A DNA stretch of 40,444 nt from a virus: the UHGV virus genome UHGV-1410056; one strand, given 5' to 3'. The translations under genes were made by a program, and so were the position numbers. Numbering within the stretch: the stretch's first letter is position 1; each line of letters opens with the position of its first letter. This document shows, in pieces, positions 1-40,444 of the stretch. Under the pieces are notes generated by a model, which was given only the letters and a program-made list of their open reading frames with translations, was not told where the DNA came from and ran no database searches.

Positions 1-17
1 ATTGAGTGGGAATGATT
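1..17 (+). repeat. attL core direct repeat ATTGAGTGGGAATGATT
   Basis: Exact 17-nt copy of 40428-40444; flanked by inverted repeat GGAATGA (9-15) / TCATTCC (38-44), a possible integrase core-binding pair. Confidence 0.7.
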
Positions 18-207: not shown

Positions 208-1458
208 GTGCTTACCGATACAAAATTAAAAAACCTCAAGCCGCAGGACAAACTGTACAAGGTCTCCGATCGTGACGGGCTGTATGTAGCTGTGCTTACG
301 TCAGGCACGGTCTCGTTTCGCTATGACTACCGTATCAACGGTCGCCGCGAAACACTGGTAATCGGGCAGTATGGGCGTGACGGTATCAGCCTGGCAGAAG
401 CGCGAGAAGAACTGATTGCTGCAAAGAAGCTGCTTAAAGCAGGCCAGTCACCGGCTGCGGCTAAACGTGACGGTATCAAAAAGATTCGTGGTGCCGAGAC
501 GTTTGCGGTACATACCGACAGTTATATGAAACACGTCATCCTGGCTGACAGTACCCGCGCAATGAAACAGGCGGTGATCGACCGTGACATACTTCCGGTT
601 CTTGGCAATAAAATGATGGCTGAAATTACCACATCGATGGTTCGTGATTTGTGTGACCGGATTGTCGAACGCGGTGGCCGGGCAACAGCAGTGCAGGCCA
701 GGGAGATCATCAGTAGCGTATACCGTCACGCCAATGACCGTGGTCATGGTTTGTTTAATCCTGCGGCTGACATTAAACCTTCGTCTATCGCCATATTTAA
801 ACCACGAGAGCGAACACTGACACCAGAAGAAATTGGCCTGTTCTTCCGCACGCTGGATGCCATTGGTGCTATGGGCACTATGAAAATGGCTTTAAAACTG
901 GTGCTTATCACTATGGTTCGTAAGGGCGAATTCACCAATGCAACGTGGGATGAAATAGATTTTAAAAAATGGACATGGACAATTCCTCCAGACCGCATGA
1001 AGGGAAGCCGGGCGCACGTTATTTACCTGCCTAAACAGGCACAGGATATATTGGTCGGGTTGCAGATGTGCGCTGGTGGAAGTGAATATCTGGTTCCTGG
1101 TCGTTACAATTTCCGGAAGCCATTATCTAATGCCGCGCTGAACTCTCTGATCGACAGAACGGTGAAAATAATAAATGAAGATGGTGAGCATATTCAGGAC
1201 TTCACTGTACATGATATGCGCCGTACAGCCAGTACGTTGTTGCATGAGGCTGGTTATCCTTCAGACTGGATTGAAAAGGCTCTGGCACATGAGCAGAAAG
1301 GTGTGCGCGCCGTATATAACAAAGCGGAATACGCCAGACAGCGCGCCTACATGTTGCAGCAGTGGGCCGATATGATTGATTCATGGATTGACGGGGAGCA
1401 TACGGATCTGATTCCGTTCTCCCCGTCGAAGTTTGAGAAGTGGATGGCGGGGGAATAA
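208..1458 (+). CDS. int: Tyrosine recombinase, P4-type phage integrase
   Basis: 416-aa ORF, GTG start at 208; N-terminus LTDTKLKNLKP and C-terminal catalytic region (HDMRRTASTLLHEAG ... VRAVYNK) typical of P4-family integrases; adjacent to attL. Confidence 0.9.
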   Translation: MLTDTKLKNLKPQDKLYKVSDRDGLYVAVLTSGTVSFRYDYRINGRRETLVIGQYGRDGISLAEAREELIAAKKLLKAGQSPAAAKRDGIKKIRGAETFAVHTDSYMKHVILADSTRAMKQAVIDRDILPVLGNKMMAEITTSMVRDLCDRIVERGGRATAVQAREIISSVYRHANDRGHGLFNPAADIKPSSIAIFKPRERTLTPEEIGLFFRTLDAIGAMGTMKMALKLVLITMVRKGEFTNATWDEIDFKKWTWTIPPDRMKGSRAHVIYLPKQAQDILVGLQMCAGGSEYLVPGRYNFRKPLSNAALNSLIDRTVKIINEDGEHIQDFTVHDMRRTASTLLHEAGYPSDWIEKALAHEQKGVRAVYNKAEYARQRAYMLQQWADMIDSWIDGEHTDLIPFSPSKFEKWMAGE

Positions 1459-1461
1459 CGT

Positions 1462-2953: not shown

Positions 2954-3002
2954 GAATACCTCTCTTGGTTGCAGTGCGGCGCACGTGGCGCCGCGGTGGT
3001 GG

Positions 3003-4025: not shown

Positions 4026-4034
4026 TTTTTCTCC

Positions 4035-15842: not shown

Positions 15843-17522
15843 ATGGCGGAAACAACTAAAGAGCGATTGAACAAACAGTTCGCACAACTTGAAAGCGAGC
15901 GTCAGTCGTTCGAGCCGCACTGGCGCGAGTTGAGTGATTACATCAACCCGCGTGGTTCCCGCTTTCTGACTTCTGAGGTTAACCGTAACGATCGACGCAA
16001 TACACGCATTATTGATTCGACCGGGACTATGGCGGCGCGCACTCTCGCCAGCGGCATGATGTCAGGCATCACAAGCCCCGCGCGTCCGTGGTTTCGCCTG
16101 GCTACGCCAGATCCTGAAATGATGGATTATGGCCCTGTTAAGTTGTGGCTTGAGGCGGTGCAGAACCGCATGAACGATATGTTCAATAATTCGAATCTCT
16201 ATCAGTCGCTGCCGCAGTTATACGGAAGCCTCGGCACATACAGCACTGGTGCAATGGCAGTGCTGGAGGATGACGAGGACATCATTCGCACAATGCCATT
16301 CCCGATAGGCAGTTACTACCTGGCTAACTCACCTCGTGGCAGTGTGGACACCTGTTTTCGCAAGTTCTCTATGACTGTTCGTCAGCTTGTTCAGGAGTTC
16401 GGGCTAAATAACGTCAGCGAATCCGTAAAAAGCATGTGGGAAAGCGGAACCTACGAGAAGTGGATTGAAGTGATGCATTCGGTTTACCCGAACATTGACC
16501 GCGATACATCGAAGCTGGATAGCAAGAACAAGCCATTCAAATCGGTTTATTACGAGGTTGGTGGCGATAACGACAAGTTGTTGCGTGAGTCCGGATTCGA
16601 TGAGTTTCCAATTATGGCTCCGCGCTGGGAAGTTAACGGCGAAGATGTTTATGGATCATCATGCCCGGGTATGCTGGCGCTTGGACCTGTTAAGGCATTG
16701 CAGCTTCTCCAGAAGCGCAAGTCGCAGTTGATTGATAAAGCCACCAATCCGCCGATGGTTGCTCCGACTTCCCTCAAGAATCAGCGTGCCTCCCTTCTTC
16801 CTGGCGACATCACGTATATCGATCAGATTACTGGTCAGGATGGTTTCAGGCCTGCTTATCTGGTTAACCCCAGTACAGCAGATTTGGTGGCAGACATTCA
16901 GGACACCCGTCAAATCATTAACAGCGCCTACTTTGTCGATCTGTTCATGATGTTGCAGAACATCAATACCCGCTCGATGCCTGTTGAAGCGGTGATCGAA
17001 ATGAAAGAAGAAAAACTTCTGATGTTGGGGCCGGTTCTGGAGCGTCTGAACGACGAATGTCTTAATCCTCTCATTGATCGCGCTTTCTCGATGATGGTGC
17101 GTAAAAACATGCTGCCGCCACCGCCTGACGCGATGGAAGGTATGCCCCTGAAGGTCGAATACATTTCCGTCATGGCTCAGGCGCAGAAGTCTATCGGCCT
17201 GTCCAGTCTGGCGTCTACGGTCAACTTCATTGGTCAACTTGCGCAAGCGAAACCAGAAGCTCTCGACAAACTCAACGTTGATCAGGCGATCGATGCATTC
17301 GCTGATATGTCCGGAGTGTCTCCAACCGTCATTGTTCCGCAGGAACAGGTTGAGCAGGCTCGCCAGCAACGGGCACAGCAACAACAGCAGCAACAAATGA
17401 TGGCGATGGGGATGGCGGCGGCACAGGGTGCCAAGACGCTAAGCGAAGCTAAAACTTCGGATCCGAGTGTTTTGTCAGCTATGGCGAATGCAGTTAGTGG
17501 TCAGGGTGGGCAATCACAATGA
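15843..17522 (+). CDS. Portal (head-to-tail connector) protein, T7 gp8-like
   Basis: 559 aa; C-terminal Gln/Ala-rich tail (QQRAQQQQQQQMMAMGMAAAQGAKTL...) closely resembles the T7 gp8 C-terminus; follows terminase. Confidence 0.75.
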   Translation: MAETTKERLNKQFAQLESERQSFEPHWRELSDYINPRGSRFLTSEVNRNDRRNTRIIDSTGTMAARTLASGMMSGITSPARPWFRLATPDPEMMDYGPVKLWLEAVQNRMNDMFNNSNLYQSLPQLYGSLGTYSTGAMAVLEDDEDIIRTMPFPIGSYYLANSPRGSVDTCFRKFSMTVRQLVQEFGLNNVSESVKSMWESGTYEKWIEVMHSVYPNIDRDTSKLDSKNKPFKSVYYEVGGDNDKLLRESGFDEFPIMAPRWEVNGEDVYGSSCPGMLALGPVKALQLLQKRKSQLIDKATNPPMVAPTSLKNQRASLLPGDITYIDQITGQDGFRPAYLVNPSTADLVADIQDTRQIINSAYFVDLFMMLQNINTRSMPVEAVIEMKEEKLLMLGPVLERLNDECLNPLIDRAFSMMVRKNMLPPPPDAMEGMPLKVEYISVMAQAQKSIGLSSLASTVNFIGQLAQAKPEALDKLNVDQAIDAFADMSGVSPTVIVPQEQVEQARQQRAQQQQQQQMMAMGMAAAQGAKTLSEAKTSDPSVLSAMANAVSGQGGQSQ

Positions 17523-18513: not shown

Positions 18514-18527
18514 GAGAGGAAATGACA

Positions 18528-19514
18528 ATGGCTGTTAAAGGCTTAACTGCGCTAACGCTGGCTGACTGGGGTAAGCGCGTCGATCCAAACGGGAAAGTCG
18601 ATAAGATTATCGAGCTTCTCGGTCAAACTAACCCGATCCTTCAGGATATGCCTTTTGTCGAAGGGAACCTTCCTACCGGACACCGAACCACCATTCGTTC
18701 TGGTTTACCTTCAGCTACCTGGCGTTTGCTGAACTATGGCGTACAGCCAAGCAAATCAACCACAGTGCAGGTAACCGATTCCGTTGGCATGCTGGAAACC
18801 TATGCGGAAGTCGATAAGTCACTGGCTGATCTGAACGGCAATACCGCCGAATTCCGCCTTTCTGAAGACCGCGCATTTATTGAAGCGATGAATCAGCAGA
18901 TGGCGCAGACGCTGTTTTATGGTGATTCCAGCGTTAACCCTCAGCAGTTTATGGGACTGTCCTCCCGCTATTCCAGCCTGTCTGCGGGTAATGCTCAGAA
19001 CATCATTGATGCTGGTGGCACGGGTACAGATAACACCTCAATCTGGTTAGTGGTGTGGGGCGAAAACACCGTGCATGGCATCTTCCCGAAAGGGCAGAAG
19101 GCTGGCATCCAGATGGAAGATAAAGGCCAGGTGACACTGGAAGATGCTAATGGCGGCAAGTACGAAGGCTATCGCACCCATTACAAATGGGATAACGGAC
19201 TTGCTCTGCGTGACTGGCGTTATGTTGTTCGCATTGCAAACATCGATGTCAGCAATCTTTCAGAACCATCCTCTGCCGCAAATATTGCGAAGTTGATGGT
19301 TAAAGCACTACATCGCATTCCAAACCGTGGCATGGGCCGCCCGGTGTTCTACATGAACCGCACTGTAGGCCAGGCTCTTGATCTGCAGTCTCTGGAGAAA
19401 ACATCTCTGGCTATCAGCGTAAAAGAGACAGAAGGCGAGTGGTGGACTTCATTCCGTGGTGTACCAATCCGTGAAACTGATGCGCTTCTGGAAACAGAAG
19501 CCCGCGTGGTGTAA
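18528..19514 (+). CDS. Major capsid protein (HK97-fold, podovirus-type)
   Basis: About 328 aa; position after scaffold; SD GAGAGGA 8 nt before ATG 18528. Confidence 0.65.
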   Translation: MAVKGLTALTLADWGKRVDPNGKVDKIIELLGQTNPILQDMPFVEGNLPTGHRTTIRSGLPSATWRLLNYGVQPSKSTTVQVTDSVGMLETYAEVDKSLADLNGNTAEFRLSEDRAFIEAMNQQMAQTLFYGDSSVNPQQFMGLSSRYSSLSAGNAQNIIDAGGTGTDNTSIWLVVWGENTVHGIFPKGQKAGIQMEDKGQVTLEDANGGKYEGYRTHYKWDNGLALRDWRYVVRIANIDVSNLSEPSSAANIAKLMVKALHRIPNRGMGRPVFYMNRTVGQALDLQSLEKTSLAISVKETEGEWWTSFRGVPIRETDALLETEARVV

Positions 19515-29132: not shown

Positions 29133-31607
29133 ATGAGACAGGAATGTATACAAGCGGTCCAGCAGGCGGCGCAGCGCACGTTAACGGCGCGAGAAATACA
29201 GAACATTGAAGACCGCATTTATCGAAATATGCGCTCCATTGCTCGTGATGACCCGATGTCGTGGAGACAACTTTCCGAATCAGAGCGGCTATATCGAGCA
29301 GCACAATTGGCATCTGAAGAATTACAGCGAGAAGCGGCATTAAAGAAACGTCGTGTGACTCTCACTATAGCCGCGCGTCAGAGATTGGATAAATTTATCA
29401 ATAGCTATCAAGGGGCTGATGGGAAACTTGGCGCTCTTAACCGTACTATAGCTTTTAATGCAGACGGTAAATCTAATTTCCTCTCTGTTGAATCCAGAAC
29501 AAAAGCCACCCGTGATTATGCATTGAGTCAATTGCAGGAGGCATTCGAAGCAGTTGATCCTCGCTTTTTTGGTCTGTTTGAAGATGAAGCGGGCGTACGT
29601 GACCTGGTATATGAAATGCGGGGGCAAAATACTGGCAATGCTAAAGCAAGAAACGGTGCTAAGGCGTGGAGAGAAGTTACAGAGCTGCTGCGCCGCCGGT
29701 TTAATGATGCTGGTGGGGACATTGGCTATCTCGAAAACTGGGGGATCCCTCAACATCATTCTATGGAAAAGGTTGGGGCAGTATCAAAGGATAAGTGGGT
29801 TAGCGATGTTATAGGTAAGCTGGATCGCAAATATTATATCCGAGCCGATGGACAACTGATGAACGATGCCGAGTTGTCTTCATTTCTTGGAGAGGCTTAT
29901 AACACGATCGCTACTGGTGGGCTGAATAAGCTTACTGATACCGGAATGCGAATTTCCGGCGCACGTGCTAACCGTGGTAATGCATCACGACAGATACATT
30001 TCAAAGATGCAGATTCCTATCTGCAATATCAGCAACTTTATGGCGATCGCTCTCTATGGGAAATCATGGTCGGTCACCTGGAAGGTATCAGTAAAGATAT
30101 TGCACTGGTGGAAACATATGGCCCAAACCCCGATCATGTTTTCCGCTCTCTTCTTGATCAGGTGAAGGCAGAAACGGCAACAGCTAACCAGAGTAAAACC
30201 GGTAAAGTCGAGCGGCTGGCGAACAACACAGAGAATCTGTACAACTTTATTTCCGGAAAGACACAGCCTGTAGCGAATCCGCACATCGCGCGATGGTCTG
30301 ACAATATCCGCAACTGGCTGGTTGCCAGCAGACTCGGATCCGCGTTGCTGTCATCGTTCTCTGATCTTGGAACCATGTATCTGTCTGCGAAGGTTACCAA
30401 CCTTCCAATGAACCAGTTATTCCGCAACCAGCTTGAAGCTATGGACCCAACGAACCGTACAGAACTTGCGCGGGCGCGCCGCGCTGGTCTGGCGATGGAA
30501 TCTCTACTTGGCAGCGTTAACCGCTGGGCGATGGATAATATGGGGCCGTCAGTGTCTCGTTGGGCGGCAACGGCGGTAATGCGTGCCAGTGGGCTTACAG
30601 CATGGTCAGATGCGCACAAGCGCGCCTATGGCGTAACCATGATGGGAAGCCTGGGAGAAGTAGTGTCACGTACACCAGACCTTCGTAGCCTCGATGACTC
30701 TGATTTTCGTATCCTGAAAAGCAAAGGGATTACTGACACAGACTGGAGCGTATGGAAGCTGGCGAAACAGGAGGACTGGGGGAACGGTAATAATACGATG
30801 CTGACACCGGAAAGCATTATGCGTATCCCTGATTCAGCAGTTAAACATCTTGGTGAGCCTGAACGCGTGAAATTTGAGGCAATGCGTAAACTGCTCGGTG
30901 CCGTAACTGAAGAAGTTGATATGGCTGTTATTACACCGGGAGCACGTGAGCAACTGATAACCGGTTCTGGTATTCAGCGTGGAACATGGAAAGGTGAATT
31001 AACGAGAAGTGTTTTCCTGTTTAAATCGTTCCCTATCTCGGTGGTTATGCGTCACTGGTCACGCGCTATGGGTATGCCGTCTGCTGGTGGGCGTGCGGCA
31101 TATATTGCGACGTTTATTGCCAGTACGACCATTCTTGGCGCTTTGTCGCAGCAACTTAACGACCTTGCGTCTGGTCGTAATCCTCGCGAGATGACAGGAG
31201 AAGATGCTGCTAAATTTTGGCTTGGTGCTCTACTGAAAGGTGGTGGTCTTGGCCTTTACGGTGACTTTTTATTGTCAGATCACACTAGGTACGGAAGCGG
31301 CGCGCTGGCGTCGATGCTTGGCCCGGTAGCTGGTCTGGTTGATGACGTAGTGAAGATTGCTCAGGGCATACCGTTAAATGCTGTGGAAGGGAAGAGTGAG
31401 CAGACTGGTGGTGATCTGGTTAAGCTGGGGAAAGGTCTGATGCCAGGTGCGAATCTCTGGTACTTGAAGGCGGCTCTCGATCACATGATCTTTAACCAGA
31501 TGCAGGAGTATTTTTCACCAGGTTATTTGCGTAAAATGGAGCAACGTTCGAAGAAAGAGTTTAACCAGACATACTGGTGGCGACCACAGGATGTCACTCC
31601 GCAATAA
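29133..31607 (+). CDS. Large internal virion / ejection protein
   Basis: 824 aa; last gene of the virion block before the accessory island. Confidence 0.45.
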   Translation: MRQECIQAVQQAAQRTLTAREIQNIEDRIYRNMRSIARDDPMSWRQLSESERLYRAAQLASEELQREAALKKRRVTLTIAARQRLDKFINSYQGADGKLGALNRTIAFNADGKSNFLSVESRTKATRDYALSQLQEAFEAVDPRFFGLFEDEAGVRDLVYEMRGQNTGNAKARNGAKAWREVTELLRRRFNDAGGDIGYLENWGIPQHHSMEKVGAVSKDKWVSDVIGKLDRKYYIRADGQLMNDAELSSFLGEAYNTIATGGLNKLTDTGMRISGARANRGNASRQIHFKDADSYLQYQQLYGDRSLWEIMVGHLEGISKDIALVETYGPNPDHVFRSLLDQVKAETATANQSKTGKVERLANNTENLYNFISGKTQPVANPHIARWSDNIRNWLVASRLGSALLSSFSDLGTMYLSAKVTNLPMNQLFRNQLEAMDPTNRTELARARRAGLAMESLLGSVNRWAMDNMGPSVSRWAATAVMRASGLTAWSDAHKRAYGVTMMGSLGEVVSRTPDLRSLDDSDFRILKSKGITDTDWSVWKLAKQEDWGNGNNTMLTPESIMRIPDSAVKHLGEPERVKFEAMRKLLGAVTEEVDMAVITPGAREQLITGSGIQRGTWKGELTRSVFLFKSFPISVVMRHWSRAMGMPSAGGRAAYIATFIASTTILGALSQQLNDLASGRNPREMTGEDAAKFWLGALLKGGGLGLYGDFLLSDHTRYGSGALASMLGPVAGLVDDVVKIAQGIPLNAVEGKSEQTGGDLVKLGKGLMPGANLWYLKAALDHMIFNQMQEYFSPGYLRKMEQRSKKEFNQTYWWRPQDVTPQ

Positions 31608-31616
31608 GGATGAGAA

Positions 31617-31757
31617 ATGATTGCTTTTATTCTTGTTGTGTTTGCGCTTGTTGCACTTGGCGTTATGAACCGTAAATGTATCATTGACGATGGCGAATTT
31701 GCTGTTGCAGTTATTATGATATTATCTGGTGTAGCAGGGTACATAGGCTTGTCATAA
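31617..31757 (+). CDS. Small membrane protein (46 aa, MIAFILVVFALVALGVMNRKCIIDDGEFAVAVIMILSGVAGYIGLS)
   Basis: Not in the ORF track; ATG 31617 with AAGGATGAG SD 9 nt after the upstream stop; two hydrophobic segments. Confidence 0.45.
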   Translation: MIAFILVVFALVALGVMNRKCIIDDGEFAVAVIMILSGVAGYIGLS

Positions 31758-31764
31758 CGTGAGC

Positions 31765-31776
31765 GTGACATGTCAC
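31765..31776. promoter_or_regulatory. Perfect 12-bp palindrome GTGACATGTCAC
   Basis: Identical to 12262-12273; immediately followed by terminator 31777-31801. Confidence 0.45.
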
Positions 31777-31801
31777 AGGCCGCTTTCGCGGCCTTGTTTT
31801 T
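31777..31801 (+). terminator. Rho-independent terminator ending the virion operon
   Basis: Stem AGGCCGC / GCGGCCT with loop TTTC, followed by TGTTTTT. Confidence 0.7.
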
Positions 31802-31961
31802 AACGAATGCCACCGCCGCCCGGACGGGAGTCCGCAGAACGCCCACCGCAGCGGGAGCCGTCAGCAGCAGTGTCGCTGTCGTGCTGACAACGACCGGCAA
31901 AGGCCTGAGTTGAAGCTACCAGAGACAACAAAACGAACAGTGCAGCAAATGCTTTTTTCAT
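31800..31961 (-). CDS. Small secreted Cys-containing peptide (53-aa precursor; predicted signal peptide MKKAFAALFVLLSLVASTQAFA)
   Basis: Start ATG 31961 chosen inside track ORF 31800..32033; canonical signal peptide with AFA-G cleavage site; candidate promoter TTGACG-17-TATAGA upstream; weak SD. Confidence 0.45.
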   Translation of the reverse strand: MKKAFAALFVLLSLVASTQAFAGRCQHDSDTAADGSRCGGRSADSRPGGGGIR

Positions 31962-32032
31962 TGTGAAATTTCCATCTATAAGCCACCTCAATGTGGCGTC
32001 AATGAGTGTAGCACTGACTTTTGTTTCGTCCA

Positions 32033-32055
32033 CAAAAAAGCCCGCAGCGCGGGCT
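32033..32055 (-). terminator. Rho-independent terminator (minus strand) after the AT-rich two-gene cassette
   Basis: Stem AGCCCGC (32039-32045) / GCGGGCT (32049-32055), A6 on plus (T6 on minus); stem overlaps the stop codon at 32054-32056. Confidence 0.6.
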
Positions 32056-32494
32056 ATTCTTCTTCATCATTAAAAAGCGGATTGTTGTTTCCATCTGATG
32101 AAAGGAAAGGTATGTGTTCTCTTGAAAATCCAACAATGACAATTTCATTATCATTTTTTGCATAATGAATGCATTCATTAGAATGCCTTCCGCCAGGGTT
32201 GAAATTTAAGTTAATGGTATAATTCTTAAATGTGTTTGGATACCATGTTGGCCCACAATGATAATGCCAATAATTCTCTTGCTCATAATTGTCTGAGCCG
32301 GGAATTTTATCATGGTTATCATCAACCCACGAGGGCTTGTTTTTTCCAACAAGCGCCCTTCCATTGGCAACATCCTCTAAAAAACTTTGTATGATTTTTA
32401 TTTCATCATCAGTAAGGAAAGGTCCGTCTACAGCGAAAGGGGTGTTGCTTTCCCCATGTAGAAAACTATTAGATATTCTAATGTTAAACTTCAA
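32054..32494 (-). CDS. AT-rich hypothetical protein (146 aa, TTG start), unknown function; second gene of a two-gene cassette
   Basis: Track ORF 32054..32635 has no internal Met and its N-terminal 47 codons overlap the upstream small gene; TTG at 32494 preceded by AGGAG (6-nt spacer); His/Cys-rich segments (HYHCGPTW, GRHSNECIHY); markedly lower GC than surroundings. Confidence 0.45.
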   Translation of the reverse strand: MKFNIRISNSFLHGESNTPFAVDGPFLTDDEIKIIQSFLEDVANGRALVGKNKPSWVDDNHDKIPGSDNYEQENYWHYHCGPTWYPNTFKNYTINLNFNPGGRHSNECIHYAKNDNEIVIVGFSREHIPFLSSDGNNNPLFNDEEE

Positions 32495-32514
32495 GGAAAA
32501 CTCCTGATGTGCTT

Positions 32515-32682
32515 CTATTTGGAGCGAAATGCCGCCTTGAAGTCGCTGAAAGATGTTCCTGTCTGGTAAACCATATCCTTGTCGCGCTCTTTGCTTGCGC
32601 GGCCAAGCATAACTTTTCCAATGACATCCCAGCATTGCTTGGCTTGTTCATTGTGCTGAGTACGATTTTTCAACGCTGTCAT
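32515..32682 (-). CDS. Small hypothetical protein (55 aa, MTALKNRTQHNEQAKQCWDVIGKVMLGRASKERDKDMVYQTGTSFSDFKAAFRSK); first gene of the two-gene cassette
   Basis: Not in the ORF track; ATG 32682 with AGGAGG 6 nt upstream; operator 32695-32709 immediately upstream. Confidence 0.5.
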   Translation of the reverse strand: MTALKNRTQHNEQAKQCWDVIGKVMLGRASKERDKDMVYQTGTSFSDFKAAFRSK

Positions 32683-32694
32683 ATCGCGCCTCCT

Positions 32695-32709
32695 TTACCT
32701 TTAAGGTAA
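32695..32709. promoter_or_regulatory. Perfect TTACC-tttaa-GGTAA operator upstream of the two-gene cassette
   Basis: Lies 13 bp upstream of the start codon of the 55-aa gene. Confidence 0.5.
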
Positions 32710-32781
32710 TAGTACGCTATTCACCCACAGTCTGCAATCTGTACAGAATTATTTAAAGGCACATCCCTGTGCCACCGCCCG

Positions 32782-33492
32782 TCAGAAGAACCCTGCCTTG
32801 TCGTTGATGTATTCCGCGTGGGTCTGGATATCACGCAGGCATTTGCTCACACCGACGATGTAGCAGAACATGGTGGTCAGCTCCGCCGCCGCGCCCGATA
32901 CGTCGTGCCCGTCGTCCTGTAACTGGTTCAGCAGATTCATCAGCAGTGAGTTCTCCGTCAGGCCGAGAACACCAGACGGCGAATTAATCAGGCTGCGGTA
33001 GCCGGGCTTCAGTGGGGCGCTGTAGGTTTTGTTCTCTATCTTCATCGCCTGCATTACTGCTGACGCCGTGGCGTTGGCTACCTGGTCGGCAACCATCTTT
33101 ATGCGTTCTTCCTGCGGGAGCGAGTTTTTAATGTAGCTTCCGGTGCGGCGGATCTGAGGAAGAACCTCACCCGTAACCCATTTACGAAAGCGGTAGGGGA
33201 TAGTGCCTGGTGTCACTGCGTCGCGGCAGCGGAGGATCAGTGTGTAGAGGCCTGACTCGGAGATGATGTTGATCTCTTTTACTCGGCTGTCAAAAATTGC
33301 ACGATGTTCATGCCCTATGTTGAACATAGACCTTTCATCATCATCCAGTTTTTCAAGTGCTTGGGTGACGTTTTGGATACGCAGCGCACTACAAACGTCT
33401 TGGGCTACAAACCATGGTTGGCCATCGATAATGATGGAACGGATAGGGTTAACAGATTCAAATTTGAAGATGGAAGTTTGAGCATTAGCCAT
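32782..33492 (-). CDS. Antirepressor (Bro-N / AntA-type N-terminal domain plus C-terminal domain)
   Basis: About 236 aa from ATG 33492; N-terminal Bro-N-like region (FKFESVNPIRSIIIDGQPWFVAQDVCSAL); C-terminal 80 aa paralogous to the LexA-box gene at 34641-34898. Confidence 0.7.
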   Translation of the reverse strand: MANAQTSIFKFESVNPIRSIIIDGQPWFVAQDVCSALRIQNVTQALEKLDDDERSMFNIGHEHRAIFDSRVKEINIISESGLYTLILRCRDAVTPGTIPYRFRKWVTGEVLPQIRRTGSYIKNSLPQEERIKMVADQVANATASAVMQAMKIENKTYSAPLKPGYRSLINSPSGVLGLTENSLLMNLLNQLQDDGHDVSGAAAELTTMFCYIVGVSKCLRDIQTHAEYINDKAGFF

Positions 33493-33510
33493 GGTGGTTA
33501 TCTCCACTTA

Positions 33511-33524
33511 GTGATTTTAATCAC
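33511..33524. promoter_or_regulatory. 14-bp palindrome GTGATTTTAATCAC just upstream of the antirepressor start
   Basis: Perfect inverted repeat GTGATT/AATCAC 19 bp upstream of ATG 33492. Confidence 0.35.
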
Positions 33525-33648
33525 CACCGCAACGCCAATTACTGGTGGTGAACTGGACAAGGTTGGCGTACCGGCCTAAGTGGTACCGGCGTCCTTTCGG
33601 ACCCCTGCCCAGCCCACCATAATTCGGATATAGCTGTGCTTAACGCAT

Positions 33649-33782
33649 AAAAAAACCACGTCTGGCGTGGTATGCGCCACTTAGTAACCCGGGACGCCAA
33701 TCCCGGCACTGGATTTTGCCAGTGCCCGATTACTATGGCACAAGAGGAGTGCGATGTAAATTTACCGCAAAGGTAATGATAA
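33649..33782 (-). ncRNA. Candidate small RNA or attenuated leader (about 120 nt) upstream of the antirepressor gene
   Basis: Reverse-strand promoter TTGATT (plus 33800-33805) - 17 bp - TATCAT (plus 33777-33782), overlapped by operator 33762-33776; transcript contains hairpins (GGCACTGG/CCAGTGCC; CCGGGA/TCCCGG) and ends at intrinsic terminator CCACG-N5-CGTGG + T7 (plus 33649-33670); no credible ORF. Confidence 0.4.
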
Positions 33783-33869
33783 ACGCGGAGAAATATCAAA
33801 ATCAACCGTATTTGGTTGGTGGCGTTTAACGCTTGATCACCTGAAAGCAAGATATTACCTTTAAGGTAA
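33762..33869. promoter_or_regulatory. Two perfect TTACC-N5-GGTAA operators (33762-33776, 33855-33869) in the divergent control region between the antirepressor side and the zinc-ribbon gene
   Basis: Second operator sits 20 bp upstream of ATG 33890. Confidence 0.5.
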
Positions 33870-33889
33870 TGTTATTGTGAGGAAAAGCA

Positions 33890-34618
33890 ATGGAAGTTTT
33901 CTGGATAGTTGTTGGTGTGGTTGCGGTGATTATTTACGTTATCAACCAGAACAAGACTAAGATCTCTGATCGTACGGTCGTTAATCATAACAAAACGATA
34001 AAGACCGAAGATGGGGAGATAACGATTAATCGTACACAGGTGATAGAACACACCTCTACTCAGTTTCAAAAAACTGGAGGTAATGCGCCTAATATTTCCG
34101 AACCTCCTGCTTATGATAGTGCGGTAATCCAGACATATTGTAAACAGCAGGAGTTAGCAAAAGAGAGGCAACTGATTCAGCCAAAGCCGTTTACAGCTGA
34201 GCTTCCACCTGGAGTATCAATGCGTCCGGCATATCATGGAAGATTCCCTGGTGATGACATATCGTCTCAGTCATCTAAAAAAGCACCTCAGGCAGTATCA
34301 GAGCCAGCAAGAATACCTTCTGTATCGCCGCCAAAAGAAGAATCAGCTAACAGAGTTTCAAGTGGCCGCAAGCAGTGTTTGCGATGCAGAATAAACCTTC
34401 CATATGACAAATTCCGGAAATCGTCAAAAAATCCAGATGGATTGACTAAGTGGTGTGCAAGGTGTCTCGATGGCCCAAAGAATACACGCCATATGAAGTG
34501 GTGCCCAATTTGTAATGTCCGCAGAAAACGGACCAGCTTTTACCCTAATAATCAAAATGCGGACGGCTTAATGGCATGGTGCAAAACGTGCTGGGACGAG
34601 CACAAAGCGAAACGATAG
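33890..34618 (+). CDS. Membrane-anchored protein with C-terminal tandem CxxC zinc-ribbon-like repeats; unknown function
   Basis: 242 aa; N-terminal TM helix (EVFWIVVGVVAVIIYVI); C-terminal repeats CLRCRINLPYDKFRKSSKNPDGLTKWCARC and CPICNVRRKRTSFYPNNQNADGLMAWCKTC. Confidence 0.55.
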   Translation: MEVFWIVVGVVAVIIYVINQNKTKISDRTVVNHNKTIKTEDGEITINRTQVIEHTSTQFQKTGGNAPNISEPPAYDSAVIQTYCKQQELAKERQLIQPKPFTAELPPGVSMRPAYHGRFPGDDISSQSSKKAPQAVSEPARIPSVSPPKEESANRVSSGRKQCLRCRINLPYDKFRKSSKNPDGLTKWCARCLDGPKNTRHMKWCPICNVRRKRTSFYPNNQNADGLMAWCKTCWDEHKAKR

Positions 34619-34640
34619 GCCGCTCTTGCGGCCTTTAAAT

Positions 34641-34898
34641 TTACCGGGTTTGTTTTCGTAATTGTTCGGCACAATAGTCGAGATGTGTTTGCAGATCCTG
34701 CATAGACATCTGTGAGCTGGTGACGTAGTTAATCAGTGCAGTCAGTTCGGCAAGTGGGCCATCGACATTAAATCCATCCTTATCGAGATCCCGGAGTAAT
34801 TTCATCAAGTGCGATCCCTCCACCAGTGACCTGACGCCTCCCGGCGTGTGAATCCTTTCGGTAAATCCGTCTTCCAGTGGATAGTGATACTGCTGCAT
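34641..34898 (-). CDS. Small LexA-controlled protein (85 aa) homologous to the antirepressor C-terminal domain; candidate SOS-induced antirepressor
   Basis: Start ATG 34898 (GGAGAAG SD) within track ORF 34641..34916; about 40% identity by eye to the C-terminus of the Bro-N antirepressor (shared GV..L.E.S.LM.LL..L..DG..V.G...ELT ... D.QTH); LexA box immediately upstream. Confidence 0.6.
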   Translation of the reverse strand: MQQYHYPLEDGFTERIHTPGGVRSLVEGSHLMKLLRDLDKDGFNVDGPLAELTALINYVTSSQMSMQDLQTHLDYCAEQLRKQTR

Positions 34899-34919
34899 CT
34901 TATCTTCTCCATGCAATAA

Positions 34920-34935
34920 CTGTATATTTATACAG
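34920..34935. promoter_or_regulatory. LexA (SOS) box CTGTATATTTATACAG
   Basis: Perfect CTGT-N8-ACAG with AT-rich spacer (extended TAACTGTATATTTATACAGTAT, 34917-34938), 4 bp from the first ATG of the minus-strand gene. Confidence 0.75.
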
Positions 34936-34974
34936 TATCAAATAATTTGTTTGCTATCCAGCACGTTTTGCAAA

Positions 34975-34989
34975 TTACCTGAAAGGTAA
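34975..34989. promoter_or_regulatory. Perfect TTACC-tgaaa-GGTAA operator between the LexA-controlled gene and the tailspike gene
   Basis: Same 15-bp sequence as the site at 15517-15531. Confidence 0.5.
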
Positions 34990-35093
34990 TATCTATTCGT
35001 ATTTACAGCCTTTCTATCCATATGTGGTTTTCCAGGTAATAGAATAACCAGATATGCGGCGCAACGGGTGCTGCGACTATCTGGAGATTTAAC

Positions 35094-38000
35094 ATGACGG
35101 TCTCAACCGAAGTTGACCACAACGAATACACCGGTAACGGCGTTACGACATCGTTTCCGTATACTTTTCGAATTTTCAGAAAATCAGACCTGGTTGTTCA
35201 GGTGTCTGACCTGAACGGAAACGTAACAGAATTGGTTCTGGATACCGGTTATACGGTAACTGGGGCGGGCACTTATAGTGGCGGTTCTGTGGTTCTTCCG
35301 TCTCCGCTTGCTACTGGATGGCGAATTACGATAGATCGTGTGCTTGATGTAGTGCAGGAGACAGACCTTCGCAATCAGGGAAAATTTTTCCCCGAAGTGC
35401 ATGAAGATGCCTTTGACTACCTGACGATGCTGATCCAGCAATGTTTTGGGTGGTTCAGACGTGCATTGATGAAACCATCTTTGCTTGCAAAATATTACGA
35501 TGCAAAGCAAAACAAAATTTCTAACCTTGCAGATCCATCATTTGAGCAGGACGCTGTAAATAATCGCTCAATGCGTAATTATGTCGATGCTGCAATCGCC
35601 GGGGTTGTTGGTGGTTTTGGTTGGTTTATTCAGTATGGTTCTGGGGCTGTGTACCGAACGTTCCAGGATAAAATGCGTGATGCTATTAGCCCCAAAGATT
35701 TTGGAGCTGTTGGTGATGGTATAAATGACGATTCCACTGCAATAAGCGCGTGCCTTGAAGCCTCATCTCCAGGTTATAAAATTGACGGATTAGGGCTTAC
35801 TTTTAAAGTATCAACTCTTCCGGATGTCAGTCGATTTAAAAATGCTCGTTTTTTATTTGAGAGAATACCGGGCCAGCCTCTTTTTTATGCTTCTGAAGAT
35901 TTTATCCAGGGAGAGTTATTTAAAATTACAGATACACCGTGGTACAACGCCTGGACGCAGGATAAAACGTTTGTATATGACAATGTCATCTATGCGCCTT
36001 TTATGGCTGGAGACCGCCATGGTGTAAATAACCTCCATGTTGCATGGGTTCGCTCAGGAGATGACGGGAAGACCTGGACAACGCCGGAATGGCTTACAGA
36101 TTTACATGAAAACTATCCCACAGTTAACTATCACTGCATGAGTATGGGGGTTGTCAGAAATCGCCTTTTTGCTGTAATTGAGACGCGGACCGTGAGCGGA
36201 AATAAACTGCAGGTTGCAGAGTTGTGGGATCGCCCAATGAGTCGCAGCCTTCGCGCTTATGGTGGTATAACGAAAGCAGCAAATCAGCAAGTCGCTTATA
36301 TTCGCATTACTGATCACGGATTATTTGCTGGTGATTTTGTCAACTTCTCAAACTCTGGTGTTACAGGTGTTACCGGGAATATGACGGTGACTACTGTTAT
36401 TGATAAAAATACTTTTACAGTTACGACGCAAAATACCCAGGATGTGGATCAGAATAACGAGGGTAGATACTGGAGTTTTGGTACATCATTTCACTCGTCA
36501 CCATGGAGAAAAACCAGTCTTGGAACTATTCCTTCTTTTGTTGACGGAAGCACTCCTGTTACTGAGATTCACAGTTTTGCGACGATTAGCGATAACAGTT
36601 TTGCTGTTGGCTACCATAATGGTGATATTGGTCCACGCGAGCTTGGGATACTCTATTTCTCTGATGCTTTCGGTTCTCCTGGTAGCTTTGTTCGCAGACG
36701 CATACCTGCAGAATATGAGGCGAATGCATCTGAGCCATGTGTAAAATATTATGATGGCATTCTGTATCTGACGACCAGGGGGACATTAAGTACTCAACCC
36801 GGTAGTTCATTGCACAGAAGCTCTGATTTAGGTACATCATGGAATTCTCTTCGCTTCCCAAATAATGTTCATCACTCAAACCTTCCTTTTGCCAAAGTTG
36901 GCGATGAGCTGATTATTTTTGGCAGTGAGCGCGCATTTGGTGAGTGGGAAGGAGGAGAACCTGATAACCGTTATGCAGGAAATTATCCAAGAACATTTAT
37001 GACCAGAGTTAACGTCAATGAGTGGAGTCTGGATAATGTAGAGTGGGTTAATGTTACTGATCAGATTTATCAGGGCGGAATAGTTAACTCTGCAGTTGGT
37101 GTTGGTTCAGTTTGTATCAAAGACAACTGGCTGTACTACATTTTCGGTGGGGAAGACTTTCTAAACCCATGGAGCATAGGGGATAACAACAGAAAATATC
37201 CTTATGTTCACGATGGTCACCCGGCTGATTTGTATTGTTTCAGGGTGAAAATTAAACAGGAAGAATTTGTTTCAAGGGATTTTGTCTACGGAGCCACTCC
37301 TAACAGAACGCTTCCTACTTTTATGTCGACGTCAGGCGTGAGGACGGTTCCTGTACCCGTTGATTTCGCAGATGATGTTGCCGTCCAGTCACTGACTGTC
37401 CATGCAGGTACATCAGGACAAGTTCGCGCGGAAGTCAAACTTGAGGGTAATTACGCCATTATTGCGAAGAAAGTACCGTCTGATGATGTTACCGCTCAGA
37501 GATTAATCGTTAGCGGCGGTGAAACAACGTCTTCAGCAGATGGTGCAATGATAACGTTGCATGGTTCCGGAAGCAGTACTCCACGTCGCGCGGTATATAA
37601 CGCACTCGAACATCTTTTTGAGAACGGAGATGTTAAACCTTATCTTGATAATGTAAATGCTCTTGGTGGTCCGGGAAACAGGTTCTCGACAGTTTATCTT
37701 GGCTCCAATCCTGTGGTTACCAGTGACGGAACATTAAAGACAGAGCCGGTCTCTCCTGACGAAGCATTGCTGGATGCCTGGGGTGACGTCAGGTATATCG
37801 CTTATAAATGGCTGAACGCTGTCGCTATAAAGGGGGAAGAAGGGGCGAGGATACATCATGGTGTAATCGCGCAGCAACTTCGTGATGTTCTTATTTCTCA
37901 CGGACTCATGGAAGAAGAAAGCACAACATGCCGCTATGCCTTTCTTTGCTATGACGATTATCCCGCAGTATATGATGACGTCATTACTGGCCAAAGGGAA

Positions 38001-38213
38001 ATGCCGCTGACTGATAATGACGGGAGCATCATTGTTGATGAGGATGATAATCCAGTGATGGTAATGGAAGACATCATTGAGCGCGTTGAAATAACGCCAG
38101 CAGGATCTAGATGGGGGGTCAGACCTGATCTCTTATTCTATATCGAGGCAGCATGGCAGCGCAGAGAAATGGATAAGATAAAAGAGCGGATTCAGTCTCT
38201 GGAAGAACGTTAA
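35094..38213 (+). CDS. Tailspike: endo-N-acetylneuraminidase (endosialidase) with C-terminal intramolecular chaperone domain
   Basis: 1039 aa; T7 gp17-like N-terminal head-binding region; two sialidase Asp-boxes (SGDDGKTW, SSDLGTSW); long collinear match to K1F-type endosialidase catalytic region as I recall it; C-terminal about 162 aa resemble the autocleaving chaperone domain with predicted cleavage at Ser877/Asp878 (37722-37727). Confidence 0.8.
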   Translation: MTVSTEVDHNEYTGNGVTTSFPYTFRIFRKSDLVVQVSDLNGNVTELVLDTGYTVTGAGTYSGGSVVLPSPLATGWRITIDRVLDVVQETDLRNQGKFFPEVHEDAFDYLTMLIQQCFGWFRRALMKPSLLAKYYDAKQNKISNLADPSFEQDAVNNRSMRNYVDAAIAGVVGGFGWFIQYGSGAVYRTFQDKMRDAISPKDFGAVGDGINDDSTAISACLEASSPGYKIDGLGLTFKVSTLPDVSRFKNARFLFERIPGQPLFYASEDFIQGELFKITDTPWYNAWTQDKTFVYDNVIYAPFMAGDRHGVNNLHVAWVRSGDDGKTWTTPEWLTDLHENYPTVNYHCMSMGVVRNRLFAVIETRTVSGNKLQVAELWDRPMSRSLRAYGGITKAANQQVAYIRITDHGLFAGDFVNFSNSGVTGVTGNMTVTTVIDKNTFTVTTQNTQDVDQNNEGRYWSFGTSFHSSPWRKTSLGTIPSFVDGSTPVTEIHSFATISDNSFAVGYHNGDIGPRELGILYFSDAFGSPGSFVRRRIPAEYEANASEPCVKYYDGILYLTTRGTLSTQPGSSLHRSSDLGTSWNSLRFPNNVHHSNLPFAKVGDELIIFGSERAFGEWEGGEPDNRYAGNYPRTFMTRVNVNEWSLDNVEWVNVTDQIYQGGIVNSAVGVGSVCIKDNWLYYIFGGEDFLNPWSIGDNNRKYPYVHDGHPADLYCFRVKIKQEEFVSRDFVYGATPNRTLPTFMSTSGVRTVPVPVDFADDVAVQSLTVHAGTSGQVRAEVKLEGNYAIIAKKVPSDDVTAQRLIVSGGETTSSADGAMITLHGSGSSTPRRAVYNALEHLFENGDVKPYLDNVNALGGPGNRFSTVYLGSNPVVTSDGTLKTEPVSPDEALLDAWGDVRYIAYKWLNAVAIKGEEGARIHHGVIAQQLRDVLISHGLMEEESTTCRYAFLCYDDYPAVYDDVITGQREMPLTDNDGSIIVDEDDNPVMVMEDIIERVEITPAGSRWGVRPDLLFYIEAAWQRREMDKIKERIQSLEER

Positions 38214-38219: not shown

Positions 38220-38239
38220 GCCCGCAATATTTTGCGGGT
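38220..38239. terminator. Hairpin immediately after the tailspike stop; terminator-competent mainly for the minus direction
   Basis: Stem CCCGCAA / TTGCGGG with loop TATT; A8 precedes it on plus (T8 after it on minus); plus-side downstream is TATCAAAAA (poor U-tract). Confidence 0.45.
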
Positions 38240-38519
38240 ATCAAAAACGGAGTTTGTGAAAAGTTATCTTTGAATTCTATCATGAATCAGTACGTATTTT
38301 AAATACATGTTCAGGTTTATTACACCATAGCATTATTAAATACAAAATTAAGTCTATGGTTCCTGTACAACTGCCCCCACTCTGCTGGCTCGTTCTGTAA
38401 AATCATTAGTACTTTTATTGAGATATATGATATGGAACAATAATGATTCATATATGGTTTACTATGCGGGTTTAGTCATCAATAATTGACTGGCTTATAG
38501 ATAGTAAACAGGAGAAAGT

Positions 38520-38924
38520 ATGTCTGCTCAAGTAACAAGTGAGCAATTAAATCAGTTGCTTAGTTTTAGTTCTCTTGCTGCGGTTATTGCAGGTGCCCCT
38601 CCGGAGGTTGCTTTAGGGGCTTTGGCTGGGGCGGTAATTTTTGTTACCTCTGCAGTAGAGTACCCCATCCGTCGCCGGGTGCTCCTGTCGATGCTCAGCT
38701 TTCTTTGCGGCCTTCTCTTTTACAAACCAGCAGCATCAATTCTTATCGGCATAGCCAGCCTGATCCCTACCATCACGCAGGACTCTTTTGAAAAAGGGAT
38801 TGTTTTCTCTGCAGGCGCATTCGTGTCAGCAATTGTCGCTGTGCGTATTGGTATATGGCTCTATCACCGTTCCGATAATCCACGCGAGTTAATTCCGGGG
38901 AGAAAAGACGATGGTAACGCATGA
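38520..38924 (+). CDS. Putative holin (multi-pass membrane protein)
   Basis: 134 aa; 3-4 hydrophobic segments; first gene of lysis cassette; CAGGAGAAAG SD. Confidence 0.5.
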   Translation: MSAQVTSEQLNQLLSFSSLAAVIAGAPPEVALGALAGAVIFVTSAVEYPIRRRVLLSMLSFLCGLLFYKPAASILIGIASLIPTITQDSFEKGIVFSAGAFVSAIVAVRIGIWLYHRSDNPRELIPGRKDDGNA

Positions 38925-39219
38925 GTTTTTTTTGCTTATCACCAATGCAGTTATTTGCACTGGCATAGCAATTCGCGTTGTCACATTCCGGCGTAACGGC
39001 TCTCAACATCGAAGGTGGGGAGGATGGCTTGCTTATTTCCTGATTGTTGCTGCGGCCAGTATTCCTGTTCGAGTCGCCTATGCAATCTGGTTACGTACGC
39101 CAATGGCTGTGGATTTATCTGAGGTCATTATCAACGCTGTCATGCTGGCTGCGGTTATTAAAACGCGCGGTAACGTCGTTCAAATTTTTAAAGTATCGAG
39201 GTCTAAACATGGAGATTAA
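38911..39219 (+). CDS. Second small membrane protein of the lysis cassette (holin/antiholin-like)
   Basis: 102 aa; 2-3 hydrophobic segments; overlaps neighbours at both ends. Confidence 0.45.
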
Positions 39220-39838
39220 ACAATTCCAGCGAGCTGCTGGTATCAGCGAGGCACTGGCCGCACGCTGGTTCTCGCATATAACTTCTGCGATGAAAGAGTT
39301 TGGTATCAGCAAAGCAGAAGATCAGGCAATGTTTATTGCTCAAGTCGGGCATGAGTCTGGGGGCTTCACCAGGTTGCAGGAGAATTTCAACTACAGTGTC
39401 AGCGGACTGGCTAACTTCGTTCGGGCTGGGCGTCTCACTCAGGGGCAGGCTAATGCACTGGGGCGCCGTGCTGGTGAACCACCATTGCCACTTGAGCGCC
39501 AGCGCGCGATCGCAAATCTGGTATACAGCAAACGCATGGGGAACAATGCCCCTGGTGATGGCTGGAATTACCGAGGGCGCGGACTTATCCAGATTACCGG
39601 TTTGAATAACTATCGTGATTGCGGAAACGGTCTGAAGGTTGACCTGCTGGAGAGCCCTGAACTGCTGGCGCAGGACGAATATGCGGCTCGTAGCGCGGCG
39701 TGGTTCTTCGCCAGCAAAGGATGCATGAAGTATACCGGCGATATTGCACGTGTAACTCTGATTATCAATGGTGGCCGGAACGGCATCGACGACCGGCGAG
39801 CGCGGTACATCACTGCCAGTAAGGTGCTGGCGGTATGA
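39209..39838 (+). CDS. Endolysin, glycoside hydrolase family 19 (chitinase-like lysozyme)
   Basis: 209 aa from ATG 39209 (GAGG SD); GH19 signature [12 protein letters not shown]; track ORF 39044..39838 has an implausible N-terminal extension. Confidence 0.75.
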
Positions 39839-40317
39839 TCTGGGCATTCGTAAAAGCATACTGGAAACAGTTTCTTATCGTGGCAGTGCTTGCTGTTCTG
39901 GTCATATCAGGAGTGGTTGCCTGGAATATACACGGCAGTCGCCAGTACGATGCCGGGTATGCTCAGGCGGAAGAAGACCGCAAAGCCGAAGAAGACAAAG
40001 TTCGTCAGTACTACGAACAGGAGAAAGTGACCAATGAACGTGAAGCTCAGCAGAGGATCGACCAGGCGCGCAATGATGCTCTTGATGCTGCCGCTAGCGC
40101 TGGCCGGTTGCAGCAACAACTCTTTGCCATCCGTGAGCAGCTCAGGCAGTATAACGCCATTGTCGGCGCTGGGTCGTCAGCCGCAGACACCGGAGTTTTG
40201 CTTGCCGACGTGCTCAGCAAATCTCTCGAGAGAAACAGACAACTGGCAGAGTATGCTGACCGGGCAGCCGAAGCCGGAAGAGTCTGCGAAAAACAGTACG
40301 ACACTTTGACCAGATAG
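39835..40317 (+). CDS. Rz-like i-spanin
   Basis: 160 aa; N-terminal TM segment then coiled-coil-like charged region; ATGA overlap with endolysin stop; contains an embedded +1-frame lipoprotein gene. Confidence 0.6.
40034..40309 (+). CDS. Rz1-like o-spanin (outer-membrane lipoprotein) embedded in the Rz reading frame
   Basis: Signal peptide with lipobox LALAG-C; Pro-containing mature region; entirely within Rz in another frame. Confidence 0.55.
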   Translation: MNVKLSRGSTRRAMMLLMLPLALAGCSNNSLPSVSSSGSITPLSALGRQPQTPEFCLPTCSANLSRETDNWQSMLTGQPKPEESAKNSTTL

Positions 40318-40427: not shown

Positions 40428-40444
40428 ATTGAGTGGGAATGATT
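40428..40444 (+). repeat. attR core direct repeat ATTGAGTGGGAATGATT
   Basis: Exact copy of 1-17; adjacent inverted repeat CACTCAATT (40399-40407) / AATTGAGTG (40427-40435). Confidence 0.7.

Follow-up and report, generated by a model that had tools for sequence, protein, structure and literature searches.

The locus described here raises the question of what an endosialidase gene is doing in a temperate phage genome: which virion would carry the enzyme, which capsule it would attack and how the gene was put together. The window is the whole 40,444-nucleotide (nt) stretch that was analysed, virus genome UHGV-1410056, and the gene in question is an open reading frame (ORF) with an ATG start, 1039 amino acids (aa) and a stop codon in the program-made ORF list (Table 1). 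A sequence-only reading had proposed that it encodes an endosialidase tailspike on a temperate podovirus-like prophage. Its product is very probably the receptor-destroying tailspike of a Uetakevirus prophage that is complete, probably inducible and inserted at the 3' end of guaA, a spike of mosaic origin that would depolymerise the K1 capsule of Escherichia coli. An identical start and stop are annotated for the tailspike ORF of phage vB_EcoP_ZX5 (hereafter ZX5) and, by the Prokaryotic Genome Annotation Pipeline (PGAP), for that of avian pathogenic E. coli (APEC) O1.

Five Pfam domains stand in the canonical endosialidase order in the protein, and the matches to the four endosialidase domains are full-length and far stronger than chance would give. 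In RefSeq the gene is named 'endosialidase catalytic beta-propeller domain-containing protein', and the phage endosialidase (endo-N-acetylneuraminidase) family is presumably CAZy GH58. Comparison with the PDB structures of endoNF (1v0e/3gvl) gave E = 0 and 1045 bits over aa 205-876, and Peptidase_S74 (PF13884) was matched at aa 877-937 with 41.4 bits (E = 1.7e-10; Pfam cutoff 22 bits). All four active-site residues of endoNF (H350, E581, R596 and R647) are conserved, as H309, E547, R562 and R613, and lie in gap-free alignment blocks; the residue numbering was cross-checked by the Arg-to-Ala change seen in the 3gvj mutant chain. The two Asp-boxes claimed from the sequence, SGDDGKTW and SSDLGTSW, were both located in the ORF. 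With these domains, structural matches and residues, the endosialidase part of the sequence-only reading is borne out. The protein shares its domain order, fold family, catalytic residues and Ser/Lys pair with endoNF of the T7-like phage K1F (1V0E, 3GVL, 3GW6). However, the two sequences are clearly diverged, with a 7-residue indel after aa 480, and K1F is a strictly lytic phage of the Autographiviridae.

The C-terminal domain matches the structure of the endoNF chaperone, 3gw6 (E = 4.4e-59, aa 858-1038). In the string VVTSDGTLKTE, S877 and K882 align with the cleavage region of 3gw6 and match S911 and K916 of endoNF, the Ser nucleophile and a Lys five residues downstream, which is the MEROPS S74 cleavage pair. 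The Ser-Asp autocleavage context claimed for the chaperone is therefore present, S877-D878 lying exactly at 37722-37727, and self-cleavage at S877/D878 is a supported prediction from this alignment.

The substrate is suggested by SiaK1 of CUS-3, a P22-like Lederbergvirus prophage of E. coli K1 RS218 (CP000711). Nucleotides 699-3091 of the gene are 99.4% identical to siaK1, and this shared block spans the propeller, the barrel, the stalk and most of the chaperone. Within it 6 of 792 aa differ (A266V, A388V, A759T, G826R, T866I and A891T), none of them catalytic, so that the block is 99.2% identical at the protein level. From this identity the spike probably cleaves alpha-2,8-polysialic acid. 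The GenBank entry for siaK1 lists endo-alpha-sialidase activity by direct assay (PMID 16689790).

The carrier is an epsilon15/phiV10-like prophage. Its virion module (12000-35000) was 97-98% identical at the nt level, over 82-91% of its length, to HEMP4, phiv142-3, phiV10 and ZX5; O157 typing phages 9 and 10 were also 97-98% identical, and epsilon15 about 76%. The sequence-only reading had contrasted this module, with a T7 gp8-like portal and a gp11/gp12-like tube, with the P22-like CUS-3. It is indeed non-P22, and the portal does belong to the T7 gp8 Pfam family, but the platform is not T7-like as such: its major capsid protein family (PF20911) and its nt identity are epsilon15/phiV10-like. 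The virus is a Uetakevirus and not a T7-like phage, though a gp8-type portal is common to both. The tube proteins gave no Pfam match, and their closest PDB structures were tail proteins of Carin-1 and LME-1, not T7 gp11/gp12, so that the proposed gp11/gp12-like tube has indirect support at most.

The prophage is temperate, as had been proposed, with an integrase, a repressor and 17-bp attachment (att) cores at both ends. The window also encodes a helix-turn-helix (HTH) repressor, a BRO-N antirepressor and a terminase. Full-length ORFs were found for every virion, lysis, integration and immunity gene, and both att cores are intact. Since the att core stands at both ends of a gene set running from integrase to lysis, the window is a complete Uetakevirus prophage, attL to attR, and the att cores are the only host DNA in it. 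The 17-bp attP/attB core at the guaA 3' end (ATTGAGTGGGAATGATT) has been shown experimentally for ZX5, phiV10 and epsilon15 (PMC9782041). The APEC O1 copy of the prophage adjoins yfgI.

How the spike would be held on such a tail was addressed through its N-terminus. Over its first ~196 aa the protein hardly differs from the tailspikes of other Uetakeviruses (EC.W1-9), and this part matches 22 PHROG tailspike/fibre families, which differ downstream. An AlphaFold2 (AF2) model built from a 38-sequence alignment (database search) showed a confident beta-sandwich at aa 9-85, with a predicted local distance difference test (pLDDT) score of ~90; pLDDT was low for helices at 103-122, 157-172 and 183-197, which is to be expected when a trimer is modelled as a monomer. 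The top Foldseek match in the PDB was the Carin-1 fibre 8ck1_B (E = 2.6e-11, 48% identity), and the next ~20 were all podophage fibre N-terminal anchors (PhiM1, LME-1, Kp7/Kp9, P-SCSP1u, HRP29 and T7 gp17). T7 gp17 itself was matched in 8dsp (9e-6), 7ey9 (2e-4) and 7boz (5e-4), with a probability of 1.00 each. A phmmer search of the adaptor against Dpo31/Dpo36 gave E = 1.5e-32. In the Dpo31 paper, D1 is a beta-sandwich (residues 8-87) linked to the virion base, and D2, which follows it, is a three-helix coiled coil. The closest solved adaptor is thus that of Carin-1, a podovirus of Cobetia marina (Dpo31/Dpo36; PDB 8CK1, 28LX), whose nozzle and connector are also homologous, although its host is marine and its depolymerase domain is another one. 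What had been called a T7 gp17-like adaptor is supported by the model as gp17-like in fold and in its role as anchor, without membership at the Pfam level. At its N-terminus endoNF likewise has an adaptor of T7 gp17 type. The adaptor of the window protein also occurs (80% identity) in a 277-aa protein of Kluyvera cryocrescens, where it is followed by the Pfam endosialidase N-terminal extension and an abrupt end; in this other genus an endosialidase-like spike may have been truncated or frameshifted.

Homology to endoNF and to the CUS-3 endosialidase suggests a course of events for activity, self-cleavage and docking. The spike would trimerise with the aid of its C-terminal chaperone domain, which would then remove itself through a Ser877/Lys882-dependent cut at S877/D878, leaving a mature spike of 876 residues. 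The beta-sandwich and helical neck would plug the trimer onto the adaptor and nozzle of the short tail, in the manner of the T7 gp17 N-terminus and the Carin-1 fibre. The propeller (E547, R562, R613 and H309) would bind and depolymerise the alpha-2,8-polysialic acid of the K1 capsule, with the beta-barrel and stalk probably providing polysialic-acid-binding sites, and removal of the capsule would give the virion access to the outer membrane of K1 E. coli. The gene would be a mosaic in which a Uetakevirus adaptor is joined to an endosialidase whose interior is kept near-identical to siaK1 of the unrelated CUS-3, presumably by recombination in K1 hosts that harbour both prophages.

The distribution of the gene agrees with the K1-encapsulated E. 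coli host predicted from the sequence. Among 5426 complete E. coli genomes, 72 contain the full-length gene (99.6-99.9% nt identity). Carriers include CE10 (O7:K1), O1:K1:H7 and O2:K1 APEC isolates, APEC O1 and IHE3034, and all those with a stated capsule type are K1, as is the ZX5 host (O87:H52:K1). The APEC O1 protein (WP_000218907.1) has 2 aa differences (99.8% nt), and the closest match in these genomes to positions 31600-35100 of the window was 97.8% identical over 91%. In 23CRST038 (NZ_AP045810.1) and SF-088 (NZ_CP012635.1) the endosialidase gene is interrupted by an IS3-family insertion sequence (IS) element; the spike is therefore inactivated in some hosts.

The nearest named relative is ORF7 of ZX5 (QTH80017.1; MW722083), which is the same gene (99.8% nt, 3 aa differences). 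The Uetakevirus virion and lysis modules, the integrase and the 17-bp att core at guaA are all shared, and identity is 96-99.7% over 82% of the window length. The other 18%, in the early and moron regions and including RecT/YqaJ and an ORF at 33890-34618, is not in ZX5, and ZX5 is an isolated free phage whereas the window is an integrated copy. Positions 3007-4930 had no megablast match in ZX5, whose annotation here is RecT with a RecE-like exonuclease, so a recombination module has been swapped in the early region. ZX5 plaques on and lysogenises E. coli YO1 (O87:H52:K1), entering guaA via the same 17-bp core (PMC9782041). Its ORF7 was described as a T7-like tail-fibre N-terminus, an endosialidase middle and a C-terminal endosialidase chaperone, and the phage was placed in Uetakevirus (Pathogens 2022, PMC9782041). 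Literature searches found no description of a Uetakevirus endosialidase other than that of ZX5. CUS-3, given in the sequence-only reading as the known temperate endosialidase phage, is consequently no longer the sole case, and the novelty that this reading implied does not hold, since ZX5 has the same three-domain description and a protein with 3 aa differences. GenBank and the 2022 paper already cover the gene and its domain architecture as well as the epsilon15-like carrier and the K1 host, and the gene therefore opens no new question by itself.

CUS-3 and the window phage are both temperate and both found in K1 extraintestinal pathogenic E. coli (ExPEC) and APEC, often in the same genome. 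They differ at both ends of the spike gene. The CUS-3 spike has a P22-type head-binding N-terminus, whereas an adaptor of the epsilon15/T7-gp17 fold is found here, the N-terminal 192 aa being unrelated; CUS-3 has phase-variable neuO immediately downstream and integrates at argW, whereas the window has lysis genes downstream and guaA as its site. A P22-type N-terminus, neuO with its heptads and argW, which mark CUS-3-like prophages, are thus all absent from the window. The absence of neuO and of AAGACTC repeats had also been noted from the sequence, and it was confirmed: a heptad search found a single isolated AAGACTC in the window (28955) and no tandem array, and the best tblastn match in the window to the NeuO-type acyltransferase of APEC O18 had E = 2.7. 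Pfam and PHROG scans of the neighbouring ORFs found no conversion gene. In CUS-3 the poly-psi array of neuO, with 19 AAGACTC heptads, starts 160 nt past siaK1, and in APEC O18 and ST95-32 the gene after the CUS-3-type spike encodes an acyltransferase; here a stem-loop and ~280 nt of AT-rich non-coding DNA separate the spike gene from the lysis genes. Both phiV10 and epsilon15 target the O-antigen and carry serotype-conversion genes, and no such gene was found in the window.

Local blastn showed the gene to be mosaic, with a Uetakevirus backbone, a divergent junction, the block shared with CUS-3 and a divergent end. Identity to the EC.W1-9 adaptor (97% nt) continues up to 35689, and aa 1-196 of the two proteins are nearly identical. 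A two-parent crossover between an EC.W1-9-like phage and CUS-3 was rejected because neither parent is matched by the ~100-nt junction or by the last 29 nt, though both stretches are homologous to CUS-3. The left junction sits on the GAxGDGxxDD motif, which is common to many depolymerase spikes even at the nt level, and the divergent junction (35640-35800) was seen nowhere but in ZX5 and in two phage records named 'Phi05', which are unannotated. Some 40 nt at 35694-35735, encoding FGAVGDGINDDSTA, are 87-90% identical at the nt level to tail-fibre genes of unrelated phages, namely Escherichia phage EC1-UPM and a Vibrio phage 'pectin lyase fold' protein; these matches mark it as a shared patch of microhomology located precisely where the modules join.

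In the Uetakevirus tailspikes (phiV10, epsilon15, EC.W1-9 and others) the adaptor and virion backbone are as here, whereas the receptor-binding parts are unrelated. EC.W1-9 has a spike annotated 'eliminase', whereas GH28-related spikes or SGNH hydrolases are found in others. In E. coli genomes the same backbone position is also occupied by spikes of at least four further types (GH28-related, SGNH/GDSL hydrolase, 'phage tail protein' and 'tail fiber domain-containing'), which illustrates cassette-like exchange downstream of a conserved adaptor.

Lysogens of both phages give some indication of how the catalytic block stays so similar. The block was found at 247 places in 186 of the complete genomes, with up to 4 per genome. 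A CUS-3-type junction was present in 157 genomes and a Uetakevirus-type junction in 72, which places both types in about 43-48 genomes (by inclusion-exclusion, presuming no third type). Both prophage types were found in APEC O18, ST95-32, GPEC505-623, 729_270514 and IHE3034. The block stands at 4 places in ExPEC XM (NZ_CP025328.1) and at 3 in PU-1 (NZ_CP042246.1), more than two prophage types explain, so these strains may have a third carrier or duplicated prophages.

The 2393-nt block was compared across 12 alleles, with both copies taken from APEC O18, ST95-32, GPEC505-623 and 729_270514. Fixed differences between the platforms were confined to the block edges (nt 729 and nt 3078-3084). An A at nt 1686 occurred only in the two ST95-32 copies. 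ST95-32_U departs from APECO18_U at 5 positions, and at 4 of them (nt 1686-2597) it has the allele of its co-resident CUS-3-type copy. The sister alleles 729_U and GPEC505_U differ at 8 positions, all of them within one 615-nt tract. In this tract 729_U has 0 differences from its co-resident CUS-3-type copy, compared with 16 outside it (clustering P ~ 5e-4 by simulation). The two copies in GPEC505-623 differ at 24 sites. Tracts of shared alleles, together with flanks that are homologous and divergent, fit repeated patch conversion between two endosialidase genes on the same chromosome.

Several points weigh against the K1-specific tailspike reading. The ZX5 paper treats ORF7 by domain annotation only (PMC9782041). 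The adaptor model is confident for aa 9-85 only; with half of it at low confidence, template modelling scores (TM-scores) to T7 gp17 reach just 0.3-0.5. Pfam PF03906 (Phage_T7_tail) was matched at aa 135-161 only, with 15.9 bits and so under its gathering cutoff of 25.2 bits, and BLASTP against authentic T7 gp17 (NC_001604) returned just a 22-aa motif (E = 0.01); on these two results, membership of the adaptor in PF03906 was rejected. A search for a third parent of the junction segment (aa ~197-233) found no donor, and the K1 status of this window's host is drawn from relatives, which support it well. It is nevertheless very unlikely that the prophage is a defective remnant and its endosialidase gene a relic, or one domesticated by the host (for capsule turnover, for example) and not used in a virion. 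Such a remnant would fit the IS-disrupted copies in lysogens such as 23CRST038 and SF-088 and the part of the window not shared with ZX5, and inducibility of this prophage is a prediction; but the virion, lysis, integration and immunity ORFs are full-length between intact att cores, the spike is 3 aa from that of a plaque-forming phage, and the segments missing from ZX5 encode alternative early functions of an ordinary kind (RecT/YqaJ where ZX5 has RecT/RecE-like). Another specificity, for K92 mixed alpha-2,8/2,9 polysialic acid, for an O-acetylated polymer only or for another nonulosonic-acid glycan, with a host that need not be K1, seems scarcely credible. The activity of the spike is predicted from sequence and six substitutions separate it from CUS-3 SiaK1, but none of these is at a catalytic residue, the block is nearly identical to an enzyme recorded as assayed and every carrier with a stated capsule type is K1.

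The K1-specific tailspike on a complete prophage remains the same whichever way its module arrived, and the origin has to be weighed separately. Recurrent intragenomic conversion between CUS-3 (at argW) and the epsilon15-like prophage (at guaA, ~170 kb apart) in K1 double lysogens is plausible, though somewhat short of probable. Concerted evolution across virus families would then affect the receptor-destroying domain, with each virus keeping its own virion adaptor, and the prophage's own RecT/YqaJ may be a driver of the module exchange. It is possible, if rather doubtful, that there was instead a single past transfer of the module followed by independent descent, the sharing of alleles being due to chance, strain kinship or cross-polishing of assemblies. 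Four double lysogens, a small sample, were compared; the copies of GPEC505-623 are not especially close, many shared alleles are simply the common allele, and hybrid assemblies can homogenise 2.4-kb repeats, so that the shared tracts could partly be an artefact of assembling or polishing two near-identical copies. A single transfer sits less easily with a tract in which 8 of 8 differences equal the co-resident copy, with an allele exclusive to both copies of one strain and with platform differences fixed at the block edges only. Moreover, the sequences that immediately flank the block are homologous yet ~40-50% divergent, as predicted if patches were replaced in an existing endosialidase gene. 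A literature search found no publication linking endosialidases with gene conversion.

Other features of the window were noted beside the spike gene (Table 1). Positions 38239-38519, between the terminator-like hairpin and the holin gene, contain no + strand ORF of at least 50 aa, and EC.W1-9 has two small annotated ORFs in this place. A tRNA-Arg gene (anticodon TCT; 15118-15194, - strand) lies between the terminase and portal genes and is also annotated in O157 typing phages 9 and 10. A 242-aa ORF (33890-34618, + strand), located between the antirepressor and spike genes, encodes a Cys-rich membrane protein whose N-terminus is hydrophobic and which has two zinc-ribbon-like motifs rich in Cys. 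It matches PHROG 6762 (unknown function), with weak endonuclease VII/Lar-like matches and a sub-threshold match to Pfam Stc1, and it is present in the GPEC505 and 729 prophages and absent from ZX5 and APEC O1.

Table 1. Coordinates of the spike gene, its domains and residues, its mosaic segments and other prophage features in the window
Feature	Position	Strand	Basis
Endosialidase tailspike gene	35094..38213	+	ORF list; five-domain Pfam match; 99.8% nt to QTH80017.1 and WP_000218907.1
Adaptor domain D1, beta-sandwich, aa 8-87, predicted spike docking on tail	35115..35354	+	AF2, Foldseek, phmmer, Dpo31 paper
Helical neck, ~aa 102-200, probably trimeric coiled coil; ends at recombination junction	35397..35693	+	Model; Dpo31 D2
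Endosialidase N-terminal extension, aa 205-271, with shared GAxGDGxxDD motif	35706..35906	+	Pfam PF12218 End_N_terminal, E = 5.9e-32
Catalytic six-bladed beta-propeller, aa 272-721	35907..37256	+	PF12217 End_beta_propel, E = 1.2e-233
Beta-barrel inserted in propeller, aa 383-465	36240-36488	+	PF12195 End_beta_barrel, E = 7.9e-46
Stalk, aa 722-876, C-terminal end of mature protein	37257..37721	+	PF12219 End_tail_spike, E = 1.9e-77; aligned to 1v0e chain end
C-terminal intramolecular chaperone / Peptidase_S74, aa 877-1039	37722..38210	+	PF13884; 3gw6 match
H309	36018-36020	+	Alignment to endoNF
E547	36732-36734	+	Alignment to endoNF
R562	36777-36779	+	Alignment to endoNF
R613	36930-36932	+	Alignment to endoNF
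Asp-box SGDDGKTW, aa 321-328	36054-36077	+	Sequence
Asp-box SSDLGTSW, aa 576-583	36819-36842	+	Sequence
VVTS/DG: S877 and D878, predicted cleavage S877/D878	37722-37727	+	Sequence
K882	37737-37739	+	Sequence
Uetakevirus backbone, 97% to EC.W1-9	34618-35689		Local blastn
Junction, aa ~197-233, homologous to CUS-3 endosialidase N-extension, ~50-70% identical	35690-35791		Local blastn
Block shared with CUS-3 siaK1, 99.4% nt	35792..38184	+	Local blastn
Last 29 nt of gene, homologous to CUS-3, ~50-70% identical			Local blastn
attL core ATTGAGTGGGAATGATT	1..17	.	Sequence; same as attP/attB core of ZX5, phiV10, epsilon15
Tyrosine integrase	208..1458	+	Pfam Arm-DNA-bind_3, Phage_int_M, Phage_integrase
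RecT annealase	3003-4025	-	Pfam RecT, E = 4e-57
YqaJ exonuclease	4035-4934	-	Pfam YqaJ, E = 3e-23
Portal, T7 gp8 Pfam family	15843..17522	+	PF12236, E = 3.8e-187
Major capsid protein, epsilon15 GP7 family	18522..19514	+	PF20911, E = 2.1e-149
Tail adaptor/connector, 202 aa, probable spike docking partner	20720-21328	+	Carin-1 connector 8ck1_E, E = 2.8e-26; PHROG tail
Tail nozzle, 823 aa, probable spike docking partner	21328-23799	+	Carin-1 nozzle 8ck1_A, E = 5.7e-217; PHROG tail
GC-rich stem-loop directly past stop codon	38221..38238	.	Sequence; terminator-like scan
Lysis cassette: two holins, GH19 endolysin, DUF2514 spanin-like protein	38520..40317	+	Pfam; order as in ZX5 and APEC O1
attR core ATTGAGTGGGAATGATT	40428..40444	.	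Sequence; same as attP/attB core of ZX5, phiV10, epsilon15

Capsule typing makes use of K1-specific endosialidases, which have also been explored as enzymes against virulence, and their temperate carriers bear on the biology of neonatal-meningitis and avian pathogenic E. coli. The only forward-looking element here is the hint that receptor-binding modules are homogenised in co-resident prophages of different families. If true, this would be a clean natural example of host-range modules moving between phage lineages inside a lysogen.

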